From: Escherichia phage PC3
Sequence record: ON184125
DNA: 64,000 bases
Reading direction: 5' to 3' (one strand)
The notes beneath the pieces are model-generated. The model saw only the letters and a program-made list of their open reading frames with translations. It was not told the DNA's origin and made no database searches. Shown here in pieces: positions 13,006 to 39,803 of this stretch (its first letter is position 1; every line of letters starts with the position of its first letter). Both the position numbers and the translations under genes were made by a program.

Positions 13006-13031
13006 TTCAATCTACGAGGGCGGCGTATAAT
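13006..13031 (+). promoter_or_regulatory. promoter-like element TTCAAT-N14-TATAAT overlapping a GC hairpin
   Basis: CGCCGCC-ttcaatctacgag-GGCGGCG then TATAAT; TTCAAT lies in the loop. Confidence 0.45.
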
Positions 13032-29065: not shown

Positions 29066-29100
29066 TTCAATAGATGAAGGGGTTGCTATAATAGCAGCTC
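29066..29100 (+). promoter_or_regulatory. promoter-like element TTCAAT-N15-TATAAT within hairpin, upstream of nucleotide-modification operon
   Basis: TTCAATAG...GGGGTTGC-TATAATA-GCAGCTCC (stem with G-U pairs) then TTTTGTTT. Confidence 0.5.
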
Positions 29101-35300: not shown

Positions 35301-35335
35301 TTCAATAAAGCGGGTCATAGGGTATAATTCTATGA
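35301..35335 (+). promoter_or_regulatory. promoter-like element TTCAAT-N16-TATAAT with TATAAT in palindrome TCATAG...CTATGA
   Basis: TTCAATAAAGCGGGTCATAGGGTATAATTCTATGA. Confidence 0.45.
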
Positions 35336-36152: not shown

Positions 36153-37346
36153 ATGAACGTCAAAACATTCAATATTCCGATCGACAATGAAGGGTTGGTA
36201 GTTGAGCGACTGAAGAAGCTCGAGCGCACTGCCGAAAGGTTGGGTGTTCCGTTTCCGACTGTGACTTATGGTGAACCCTTCAAAACCCACACCCGCGACT
36301 TCACTGGTGAGATCATTACTCACTGGTGGAAACCTGTTACTCTTGAAGGCGAAGGCATTGACCGCCCCGTCTCTTATGGTGGCTGGAAGATCATCGGTCA
36401 GTTCAATCACGAATATCCAAAGGTTATTCTTAACCGCCTGTCCGACAACATCAATCCTGACTTCATCCGTCGCTTCGAGACAGAGAACGTCTCTTGGTGT
36501 CAGCATTGCAATCTAGCCATCCGTCGCAAGAACACGTATGTGATTGAAAATGAGGAAACGCATACCCAGATGCTGATTGGTAGCACCTGTATGCATCATT
36601 ATGTACCTCATCAGAAATCGCTTGACGCGATTATGTCTTACTATCTGGGGATCCAAGAGTTCTTCATGCCAGAAGAGGACGACCCAGAGGGTATATATCG
36701 CGTCCAAAATGAGCGCTTCACCGATACCCACAGTTACCTGCGCGCATGCTTCCAGGTGATGCTGGCAGGCGTGGATATCAAGTCTGAACTGTTTGACAAA
36801 GTACTGGGCTATGTCCGGTCTCACCAGAAACCAAAAGCAGGTTCCGATGAAGAGTATTTCGTAAACAAGGCACACGAATACCGTGAAGATGCCGAGTCGG
36901 AAATGTACCATATGAAGCTCTTCATCAGTGCGCTGTCCGAATCTAATGAGTTCAATGTTCGCCTGAAACGCATGTGTGAACCCGGCTATCACCTCATCAA
37001 GGATAACAACACAGTCCGCTGGGGTGCCAAGAAGTATTACGATTACATCCATCGTCCTCGTACTGACCGCAAGGCGGAGAACAAATGGGTGGGTGAAGTC
37101 GGTGAAATGCTGGAAGTGCAAGTCAGGTTCGACAAGCGCACCTTTCTCTTCTCCAATGAATATGGTGATAGTTACCTGTTTACTTTCAAAACAGCAGAAG
37201 GCAATACAATTACCTGGAAGACCTCTTATATGGATACAGAGTTCTTGCAGGGCGATATGATCATCCGTGGTCGTGTCAAAGAACTGACTGAGTACAACGG
37301 CGTTAAACAAACTCAGGTCACTAGAGCCAAATTGAGGAAATTATGA
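36153..37346 (+). CDS. hypothetical protein (about 398 aa)
   Basis: Start at ATG with GAGG 5 nt upstream (alternative ATG 36141); contains WCQHCN...STCMHH Cys/His cluster. Confidence 0.7.
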   Translation: MNVKTFNIPIDNEGLVVERLKKLERTAERLGVPFPTVTYGEPFKTHTRDFTGEIITHWWKPVTLEGEGIDRPVSYGGWKIIGQFNHEYPKVILNRLSDNINPDFIRRFETENVSWCQHCNLAIRRKNTYVIENEETHTQMLIGSTCMHHYVPHQKSLDAIMSYYLGIQEFFMPEEDDPEGIYRVQNERFTDTHSYLRACFQVMLAGVDIKSELFDKVLGYVRSHQKPKAGSDEEYFVNKAHEYREDAESEMYHMKLFISALSESNEFNVRLKRMCEPGYHLIKDNNTVRWGAKKYYDYIHRPRTDRKAENKWVGEVGEMLEVQVRFDKRTFLFSNEYGDSYLFTFKTAEGNTITWKTSYMDTEFLQGDMIIRGRVKELTEYNGVKQTQVTRAKLRKL

Positions 37347-37459
37347 ATTTGATTGAGTTTGTTCTGAAGTCGTTCGCCTTTGGTCTGATAGCATGTGGGA
37401 TGATTACAGCTATGCTTCTCATCATAGCCCTGGTCATCCCCTTTAAGAGGAAACGCTGA
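37343..37459 (+). CDS. possible small membrane peptide (38 aa)
   Basis: MNLIEFVLKSFAFGLIACGMITAMLLIIALVIPFKRKR*, ATGA overlap with upstream stop and TGATG overlap with downstream start. Confidence 0.35.
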   Translation: MNLIEFVLKSFAFGLIACGMITAMLLIIALVIPFKRKR

Positions 37460-37671
37460 TGGAATGTTCATGCGGAGGGCAGGGCACAAGTGCTTACCTG
37501 CCATTCACCACTGTGAAGGAAGCCGAAGCCGCCGGATTTGCCGTAAGCAAGGCTCCCTGTGTAATCGCCACGAAGGATTGCCCGTGCTGTAAGAGGCACT
37601 CTCAGGACGTCTTCTACGCCCCTGATGCGCGTCCGGCTACGGTCAACCTACTCTCACTGATGAGGAAGTGA
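37459..37671 (+). CDS. small Cys-rich protein
   Basis: 70 aa with CSCGG and CPCC clusters. Confidence 0.45.
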   Translation: MECSCGGQGTSAYLPFTTVKEAEAAGFAVSKAPCVIATKDCPCCKRHSQDVFYAPDARPATVNLLSLMRK

Positions 37672-37672
37672 C

Positions 37673-37894
37673 ATGCGCAAGTATTTCAATTGGCTGTTGG
37701 CAAGCCCCTGATGCGCTGAGATCCGTTGTCTAATCGATGCCATTGACGCCAAGGCTGTTTACAAAGCCCTCTCCCGACATCACAAGCGCTAGATTAATCG
37801 CACAGAGGCTCAGGCCGAAATTAAAAATCGTGAAGAAGTCCACAAGGCTCTGGGTTTCATAACAAATAATTCAATAAACTATTCACCCATATAA
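37673..37894 (+). pseudogene. possible decayed ORF: single reading frame interrupted by two in-frame stops
   Basis: Frame from ATG 37673 reads MRKYFNWLLASP-TGA-CAEIRCLIDAIDAKAVYKALSRHHKR-TAG-INRTEAQAEIKNREEVHKALGF... Confidence 0.25.
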
Positions 37895-37895
37895 T
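37870..37895 (+). promoter_or_regulatory. promoter-like element TTCAAT-N14-TATAAT
   Basis: TTCAATAAACTATTCACCCATATAAT about 28 nt upstream of ATG 37924. Confidence 0.5.
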
Positions 37896-37923
37896 ACATG
37901 GGAACTTACAGAAGGAACAGACC

Positions 37924-38265
37924 ATGACTACACTCGTAGAAACATTATTCCCAGGCTGCGTGCTTGGGCGCGGCGGATCCGAAGCCAACGGGCTACCGAT
38001 TGACGTCGAACCTCAGAACTGTGTTATTGTTGACAAGTTTCACGACAACCATTATGTCCTGAACAATCGTCGTGACCACTATCTTGTTTCCGTAGGAGAT
38101 TCTTTGGTCAGTCTGCGCATCTGCAAGGCTATGCCAGGATCCGGCTATGGAGCATTCGCCTATATTCACAGCGTGTCAAATGACGAGCTGGGTAAAGAAG
38201 CTCTGGTTGAAAAATTCAAGAGTTGGAAGGATTCTTTCACCTCAATTGAACCTCCGAAGAAATAA
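37924..38265 (+). CDS. hypothetical protein
   Basis: 113 aa, AAGGAAC SD-like sequence upstream. Confidence 0.6.
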   Translation: MTTLVETLFPGCVLGRGGSEANGLPIDVEPQNCVIVDKFHDNHYVLNNRRDHYLVSVGDSLVSLRICKAMPGSGYGAFAYIHSVSNDELGKEALVEKFKSWKDSFTSIEPPKK

Positions 38266-38336
38266 CTGAGGACTACACACTGACCTCATTATCGGTCAGG
38301 CAAAATCTCACACCCGCCAATAATCTATTGAAGTCC

Positions 38337-38369
38337 CCAGGGTTATAATAGCAGCACATATAACCCTGG
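38337..38369 (+). repeat. 11 bp perfect inverted repeat containing TATAAT
   Basis: CCAGGGTTATA-atagcagcaca-TATAACCCTGG ending 9 nt before ligase ATG. Confidence 0.8.
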
Positions 38370-38378
38370 AGACACCAC

Positions 38379-39803
38379 ATGATCCCTATCCTTGAAATAG
38401 TCCACCGACTTCGCGAAACCAAAGGCAGCAATGCGAAGAAAGCTGTGCTGACCGAAGCATTCAAGAACAACCCAGACTTGGCAGACTTCCTGCAATATGT
38501 CTATGACCCAATGACGTCGTTCTATCGGACTGAGTTGAAGCTCAGCGCGTACCCTCGCATGCTCGTCCGTGAGAAGACTGATGACATCAGCGAAGTCTAT
38601 GACGTCCTCGACCAGATGGCACAGCGCCTTGTCGGTGGCCAAAAGGCTGATGCCCTGTTGGCCTCTGTCGCCCTGAAGATGGATCCCCAATACCACGAAC
38701 TCATTCAGATGATCCTAGACCGTGATATCAAGGCGGGTATCGCAGAGAAGGGCATCAACGCTGCATTCAACGCCGCCGGAGGCACTGGACGCCTGATCAA
38801 CATTCTTCCGTATCATCGTTATGACAACATGACGATTGACCTGCTGAAGAAGATGGACTTCAAGCGCGGCGTCTACAGCCAGCTGAAGTCAGACGGTATG
38901 TTCGCCAACATCATATGTCGGTACAATAAAGAGCCTGAGATTCGCTCTCGCTCCGGTTCCCTTATCGCAGGTGGTTCGGTTGATAACCTTTCACTGGTGT
39001 TCAAAGACCTGATCTACGATGCGGGGATTGGTGAGAGTGTGTTCCATGGTGAACTTCTCGTTGTTGACCTCAAGTCTAATACCATCCTGCCTCGTGCTGT
39101 CGGTAACGGTAAACTCAACAGCGTGATTCAGACAGGAGAACCCCTAGAAGATCGTTATCGGGTGATCTACCGGGTGTGGGATGTTGTGCCGTATGAACAA
39201 TGGTTCAACGCCCAGCGCGTGGATACCCCGTATGAGCGCCGCTTCGATATTATCCAGCAACTGTTTGATGAAGACGACGGTCTGGTTCAGGTTCAAGAAA
39301 CCCGCGTTGTTCACTCATTTGCCGAAGCCGTCGACCACTTCAAAGACGCGCTGGCTCGCAAAGAAGAAGGCACGATATGTAAGGCCGCCGACATGCCTTG
39401 GGAAGATGGGACTTCTTCTGAAGGTCTGAAGCTGAAGATGGAGGTTGAGTGTGACCTTGAAATCGTGGGCTTCAACGAGGCCGACAAGAAGGGTAAACAC
39501 GCCAAGACTTTTGGCTCACTGATTTGTAAAACTTCCGATGGCTTGCTTGTTGTTGGTGTATCAGGGATCTCAGATGAGCTGAGACGCCATATGTGGGAGA
39601 ACCAGGGCGACTACATTGGCAAGATCGCCGCAGTGCTCTCCAATGGCGTACAGGATAAGACAGATGATGCGATGAAGTCTTTGTTCCTACCTCGCCTTGT
39701 AGAAGTCCGCATTGACAAGAAAGTGGCCAACACACTGGATGAAGTCTATGCGATACAGAAAGCGTACATTGAAAACATCGCATTCCTGTTGGAGTCTGCA
39801 TAA
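38379..39803 (+). CDS. ATP-dependent DNA ligase
   Basis: 474 aa; adenylation motif I KSDG in SQLKSDGMF. Confidence 0.85.
   Translation: MIPILEIVHRLRETKGSNAKKAVLTEAFKNNPDLADFLQYVYDPMTSFYRTELKLSAYPRMLVREKTDDISEVYDVLDQMAQRLVGGQKADALLASVALKMDPQYHELIQMILDRDIKAGIAEKGINAAFNAAGGTGRLINILPYHRYDNMTIDLLKKMDFKRGVYSQLKSDGMFANIICRYNKEPEIRSRSGSLIAGGSVDNLSLVFKDLIYDAGIGESVFHGELLVVDLKSNTILPRAVGNGKLNSVIQTGEPLEDRYRVIYRVWDVVPYEQWFNAQRVDTPYERRFDIIQQLFDEDDGLVQVQETRVVHSFAEAVDHFKDALARKEEGTICKAADMPWEDGTSSEGLKLKMEVECDLEIVGFNEADKKGKHAKTFGSLICKTSDGLLVVGVSGISDELRRHMWENQGDYIGKIAAVLSNGVQDKTDDAMKSLFLPRLVEVRIDKKVANTLDEVYAIQKAYIENIAFLLESA

Follow-up and report, generated by a model that had tools for sequence, protein, structure and literature searches.

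The closest described relatives of the locus studied here are the PHROG 8918 proteins of Ackermannviridae phages, exemplified by WKM80399.1 of Salmonella phage SW16-7, orf00051 of Shigella phage Ag3, SFP_0042 of SFP10 and orf057 of E. coli phage CBA120, whose genes occupy the same position as the remnant that we describe. Genes and remnant alike lie between a gene for a 70-aa Cys-rich protein and a TTCAAT...TATAAT element, with the same start context. Tblastn matches to the protein were found in 111 phage records, 106 of which cover at least 80% of it, from phages with Salmonella, Klebsiella, Escherichia, Shigella, Enterobacter and Serratia as hosts. An intact orthologue matches PHROG 8918 with E = 1.9e-66; the family comprises only 14 clusters in a large protein collection, its long contigs there measuring about 155–160 kb. 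The pN/pS ratios among seven intact alleles (0.07–0.29) indicate that the gene is real and under purifying selection. The protein itself has no match in Pfam, NCBIfam, PADLOC or PDB sequences; its AlphaFold2 model (pLDDT 85.7) predicts two short helices, a four-stranded sheet and a long Arg/Lys-rich helix at residues 74–110. Two N-terminal allele types occur, one beginning MRKYFNWLLGKPLS... and the other M(I/F)KFINWLFCIPPLS....

The window, by which we mean the whole 64,000-nt stretch of Escherichia phage PC3 (ON184125) that was analyzed, is 100% identical to Escherichia phage PH4 (ON184126, Ackermannviridae, Aglimvirinae) over the 1.1 kb around the gap of interest (1,101 bases compared), and an Agtrevirus-like group of phages shows 92–98% identity to the same 1.1 kb. 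The PH4 record presents 37672–37923 as an unannotated gap flanked by two hypothetical genes, both on the + strand and both free of indels among the seven phages compared below. The upstream gene (37459–37671, PHROG 4789) encodes the 70-aa Cys-rich protein and holds in its last codons the Shine-Dalgarno sequence GAGGAAG (37662–37668) that served the dead gene; the downstream gene (37924–38265, 113 aa, PHROG 5022) has its own Shine-Dalgarno sequence, AAGGA, at 37912–37916. From the ATG at 37673–37675, the frame in the gap reads MRKYFNWLLASP, a TGA stop (37709–37711), CAEIRCLIDAIDAKAVYKALSRHHKR, a TAG stop (37790–37792) and INRTEAQAEIKNREEVHKALGFITNNSINYSPI up to a terminal TAA (37892–37894) inside a TATAAT box (37890–37895), all on the + strand. 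This translation is identical to the one that led the initial annotation to describe a single frame broken by two in-frame stops. The same annotation had put the ATG 2 nt after the previous stop; the two do adjoin, with one base between them, as the upstream ORF ends at 37671.

The scarcity of stops is by itself within chance and does not discriminate between readings. In first-order Markov simulations, two or fewer stops in 73 codons arose with P = 0.34 in a given frame and P = 0.75 in any forward frame, and forward frame 2 of the gap has as many stops as the reported frame. Homology to relatives must therefore decide whether the frame has a coding origin, and it is homology, not frame statistics, that identifies it as a real ancestral coding sequence. 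The comparison with related phages that had been proposed as a check returned an intact gene of 115–116 codons at the gap position in SW16-7, Ag3, EspM4VN, the Kuttervirus SFP10 and about 100 further records, which bears out the earlier preference for an inactivated gene. SW16-7 carries it as an annotated 116-aa CDS (WKM80399.1) with the same ATG, 1 base past the upstream stop, and the same gene is annotated in Ag3 (orf00051), ChubbyThor, SKML-39, Enterobacter phage EspM4VN (BBD52192.1), pSal-SNUABM-02 and SFP10, in each at the corresponding place. We put at roughly 95% the probability that window positions 37673–37869 are a pseudogene of this small accessory PHROG 8918 gene of the Ackermannviridae. 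Its body measures 197 nt on the + strand, from the ancestral ATG to the ancestral TAA, and is what remains of a 115-codon gene of the MRKYFNWLLGKPLSAEIR... allele type, the first of the two N-terminal types; the retained parts share 85–90% nucleotide identity with Agtrevirus alleles.

The lesions of the window copy, all on the + strand, were determined base by base from nucleotide alignments with intact MRKYF-type alleles. A −1 change from GGG to GG at 37699–37700 (lesion 1) occurs in PH4 and the window only, and an inserted T at 37712 (+1; lesion 2) is common to all seven decayed alleles. Jointly these two bring the TGA into frame and then restore the ancestral frame; the other six decayed phages, with the +T alone, read MRKYFNWLLGKPLMR before a stop. 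Lesion 3, with its junction at 37747–37751, is a 150-nt (50-codon) deletion that removed ancestral residues ~28–77, and with them each of the four predicted beta-strands and 13 of the family's 29 invariant residues; in intact alleles, its ends are flanked by a GA(C/A)GCC microhomology. The TAG at 37790–37792 (lesion 4) is a derived two-base change from CGG (Arg), shared with LHE287, vB_CECAV_050 and fGh-Ecl02, and the CGG is kept at this site in intact alleles and in the AV101, YX22 and ZQ1 remnants. Finally, a −1 in the TTTC(C) run, from TTTCCAT to TTTCAT at about 37858 (37855–37859; lesion 5), leaves the ancestral TAA (37867–37869) out of frame, so that this native stop is bypassed and the frame continues to the TAA at 37892–37894. 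The frame thus overlaps the promoter box because lesion 5 carries it past the native stop; the ancestral gene itself ended before the box.

PH4 has the 150-nt deletion and the +T in common with LHE287, vB_CECAV_050, fGh-Ecl02, AV101, YX22 and ZQ1. The records of these seven phages name five different countries (Ghana, Spain, Denmark and others), and none of the seven annotates a CDS in the gap. A search of IMG/VR viral contigs for the deletion junction gave 0 matches; the deleted allele is therefore known only from the seven GenBank phages. Since both lesions are shared by all seven, inactivation is older than the divergence of these alleles. The earlier description of a recently inactivated gene is accordingly kept as to the inactivation and qualified as to its recency, the remnants differing from one another by up to ~7%. 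At least six further indel polymorphisms distinguish the six other decayed alleles. An extra T (GGCTTG) is present in three of the six and an A5 to A4 change in four; the AV101 remnant has a −1 of its own, YX22 and ZQ1 have lost an additional 24–25 nt, and the C run in TTTC(C) varies in length from 1 to 5 among the remnants. On these alignments, no reading frame is conserved among the deleted alleles, and the near-continuous frame in the window is an accident of the PH4-specific −1.

Substitution rates among the seven phages agree with this picture. The remnant body shows 0.040 substitutions per site with 57 pairwise gap events, and the flanking genes show 0.051 and 0.045 at third codon positions with 0 gap events; over all sites, the flanking genes stand at 0.026 and 0.021, with 0 gap events in 555 nt of CDS, and the 54 nt before the next ATG at 0.028, again with 0 gap events. 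Variable sites in the remnant fall 6/7/7 at ancestral codon positions 1/2/3, which are small counts. Every measure, within such small counts, points to a remnant that diverges at about the synonymous rate, shows no codon-position bias and tolerates indels. The parent gene is under purifying selection elsewhere, the disabling lesions are multiple and lineage-specific, and constraint is relaxed. The lesions and the gap are ordinary gene decay, and the pseudogene had previously gone unannotated.

In the window taken by itself, the remnant keeps to the ancestral frame over almost its whole length and has intact start signals, as would be expected of programmed recoding, in which ribosomes would read past the TGA and the TAG, or bypass the shifts, and make a shortened protein of ~70 aa; the initial annotation had listed stop-codon readthrough as its less likely option. 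The relatives speak against it, however. In the six other alleles that carry this deletion, the frame is broken at various sites, the frame-restoring −1 that makes a single frame occurs only in PH4, and the conserved core is deleted. Past the first stop, there is no third-position excess and indels are frequent; the stretch folds no better than shuffled sequence (MFE z-score +0.95) and has no Rfam match at E ≤ 1, results on which a structured RNA was rejected as well. Readthrough or recoding was rejected on the grounds that the frame is not conserved in relatives and that coding-type constraint is lacking past the stop, and we regard it as extremely improbable. The same phages bear on whether sequencing or assembly errors in one record conceal a gene that is really intact. 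Single-base differences in homopolymers (GGG/GG, A5/A4, the C run) are typical error sites, and PH4 alone has the −1 G, the one lesion that leaves some room for doubt. On the other hand, seven phages sequenced independently carry the +T and the 150-nt deletion, four of them also the TAG, and homopolymer correction cannot bring back 50 missing codons. Error was rejected on the strength of this recurrence of the large deletion and the +T, and its chance is in our judgment negligible.

Two further alternatives accept the loss of the protein and assign a role to what is left. The remnant persists in seven genomes instead of having been deleted outright, and the adjoining 54 nt are strongly conserved, which would suit retention for a noncoding role, be it at the downstream promoter (as a UP-like element or a spacer), as a site of processing or as a small RNA. 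Yet the remnant body evolves at the synonymous rate with many indels, and constraint begins only at the ancestral stop codon; YX22 and ZQ1 could lose another 24–25 nt, and RPN242 and CAU_YEP3 lost everything past the first codons. With no terminator predicted either, such a role is very unlikely. The other alternative is that a residual ORF of 12–15 codons (MRKYFNWLL...) has been kept because it encodes a functional leader peptide or couples translation. Its ATG and Shine-Dalgarno sequence are intact in 7/7 alleles, its first codons are also kept in CAU_YEP3 and RPN242, and over the initial 40 nt of the remnant, third positions account for four of five variable sites. That excess, at P about 0.045 from five sites only and with some of the variation shared with intact alleles, could reflect residual constraint or ancestral polymorphism. 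The Shine-Dalgarno sequence, moreover, lies within the upstream gene and would be conserved anyway, the peptide ends differently in PH4 (..LLASP) than in the others (..LLGKPLMR), and 210 nt separate the ORF from the next gene, which has a promoter-like element and a Shine-Dalgarno sequence of its own. We consider retention of this short ORF highly doubtful, and a pseudogene in decay is the reading that we carry forward.

These comparisons show that the gene once stood at this position, its translation coupled to that of the upstream 70-aa gene and its stop codon adjoining the next gene's promoter-like element. In the lineage that contains PH4, a deletion of 150 nt between the GA(C/A)GCC microhomologies removed the conserved core of the gene, and the +T broke its frame. 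Further lesions then accrued independently in each descendant, in the window the −1, the CGG to TAG change and the C-terminal −1. The ATG and the Shine-Dalgarno sequence presumably survive because they lie in or beside the upstream gene; ribosomes probably still start at ATG 37673 and release a 12-residue peptide at TGA 37709. We infer from the sequence that no functional protein is produced, and the rest of the remnant would be neutral transcribed spacer that is yet to be deleted.

The promoter-like element of the next gene, TTCAAT-N14-TATAAT (37870–37895, + strand), follows immediately on the ancestral stop codon, and its conservation extends from Agtrevirus to Kuttervirus. The initial annotation had been right to note that the 3′ part of the frame overlaps a promoter-like box. 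A short inverted repeat, CCCAT-ATAATAC-ATGGG (37886–37902, + strand), surrounds the −10-like box and is kept in nearly all relatives, with one mismatch in A221. A standard sigma-70 promoter scan and a terminator scan made no + strand call near the remnant. By direct pattern search of the window, TTCAAT-N13-16-TATAAT(A) was found in 5 copies, at 13006–13031, 22892–22917, 29066–29092, 35301–35328 and 37870–37895, where chance would give 0.02; every copy is on the + strand, and four of the five sit 20–45 nt upstream of a Shine-Dalgarno sequence and ATG. The last 54 nt before the next ATG, which hold the TTCAAT...TATAAT element, the hairpin and the Shine-Dalgarno sequence, are, as judged from their conservation, a constrained regulatory element of the next gene, separate from the dead gene, and TTCAAT-N13-16-TATAAT is a candidate early/middle promoter consensus for the Ackermannviridae. 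Early promoters of CBA120 were not identifiable informatically (Kutter et al. 2011, PMC3184105), the LIMEstone paper predicted promoters by the T4 consensus only, and the words promoter, pseudogene and transcription were not found in the text of a 2024 review. Separating the neutral remnant from the constrained element may help define the poorly known early/middle promoters of these phages. TATAAT boxes in the window often lie within a short inverted repeat, namely TCATAG..CTATGA at 35317–35335, CCCAT..ATGGG at 37886–37902 and, before the DNA ligase gene, an 11-bp stem, CCAGGGTTATA..TATAACCCTGG, at 38338–38370. The stems of these inverted repeats differ in sequence and therefore would not represent a common protein-binding site.

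Several observations concern the annotation of the neighboring genes. A 38-aa ORF, MNLIEFVLKSFAFGLIACGMITAMLLIIALVIPFKRKR, at window positions 37343–37459 is annotated as a membrane protein in relatives and is absent from the PH4 annotation. An extra 66-aa gene of the SFP_0044 type lies directly upstream of the 70-aa gene in fGh-Ecl02 (660–860 of locus L002), SFP10 (1118–1318 of L016) and EspM4VN (1120–1320 of L014), following the small membrane-protein gene in fGh-Ecl02 and SFP10; the window does not have it. The 70-aa Cys-rich protein itself (PHROG 4789, window 37459–37671) is named "putative DNA ligase" in ChubbyThor. The sole support found for this label is a weak match to the N terminus of phrog_114 (E = 0.006) together with a sub-threshold "sunset domain" match, and it looks like an over-annotation.

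Damage to the PHROG 8918 gene extends beyond the seven deleted alleles. In vB_EcoM-RPN242, which has the Ag3-type N terminus, and in Yersinia phage CAU_YEP3, only the first 10–25 codons remain, and the next gene is also gone, up to the element before the ligase; the CAU_YEP3 junction falls at a GGCAA repeat that is present at both ends in the window. Escherichia phage A221 (1534–1908 of L009) has a full-length Ag3-type copy with an A5 to A4 frameshift near its end; the final 14 residues are exchanged, and the shifted frame also closes at the TAA within the TATAAT box. Salmonella phage PLL1 (Kuttervirus; 601–1054 of L018) is frameshifted by a tandem duplication of ~109 nt inside the gene. The damage in A221 or PLL1 could be a sequencing or assembly artifact. 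A tree of the flanking genes places the seven decayed alleles and A221 together, apart from Ag3, ChubbyThor and SW16-7, although such short trees are poorly resolved. The presence of a different allele type in A221 within the same flank clade indicates probable recombination at the locus; because the locus recombines and homopolymer indels are homoplastic, the order of the lesions is not recoverable from the flank tree.

Window positions 37924–39803, immediately downstream, are an indel hot spot, as seen in loci L008, L010–L012, L014 and L017. The 113-aa gene (PHROG 5022) is missing from RPN242, CAU_YEP3, EspM4VN and SKML-39, and a 474-aa ATP-dependent DNA ligase gene is absent here from Ag3, ZQ1, pSal-SNUABM-02, SFP10, EspM4VN and SKML-39, in which an e.6-like gene comes next. 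The locus between a 408-aa gene (RecT-like in one record) and the DNA ligase gene is a hot spot of microhomology-mediated deletion, and nine or more sequenced Ackermannviridae can dispense with the PHROG 8918 gene. Among Agtrevirus-like phages, one group that infects mostly E. coli accounts for the allele with the 150-nt deletion, the deletion in RPN242 (where the allele background is different), the A221 frameshift and perhaps the CAU_YEP3 deletion, and relatives from Salmonella, Shigella and Klebsiella as well as Kuttervirus relatives keep the gene under purifying selection. It is possible, if unlikely, that the repeated loss in this group was selected and not due to drift alone, for example as escape from a host defense that senses the product; if so, the product would be a liability in some hosts and its loss an escape event. 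Outside annotation the remnant has little significance: in PH4 and the six related genomes, the gap of 250 nt should be entered as a PHROG 8918 pseudogene, instead of being left blank or made the target of a search for a new gene.

Compared with intact members of PHROG 8918, the remnant agrees in homology and in its position beside the 70-aa gene. It departs from them in having, in place of an uninterrupted ORF of 113–117 codons, two stops, three single-base indels and the 150-nt deletion, and in lacking the conserved core (invariant D28...E76, with the four strands), a segment that was deleted whole and whose invariant residues include Y45, N46, G47, A52, Y53, V55, N56, Y61, D64, C71, L72 and P73. 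A221, PLL1, RPN242 and CAU_YEP3 resemble the window in that the same gene is disrupted, independently or further, and differ from it in their lesions and allele backgrounds, A221 and RPN242 having the Ag3-type N terminus. With the pseudogenes described in phages and bacteria, which are decaying accessory genes subject to deletional bias, the window copy shares disabling lesions, a neutral rate with indels, a homologue under purifying selection, deletion that has gone further by steps in relatives, and microhomology flanking the deletion; it is unusual among them only in that the wreck is still recognizable in seven phage genomes.
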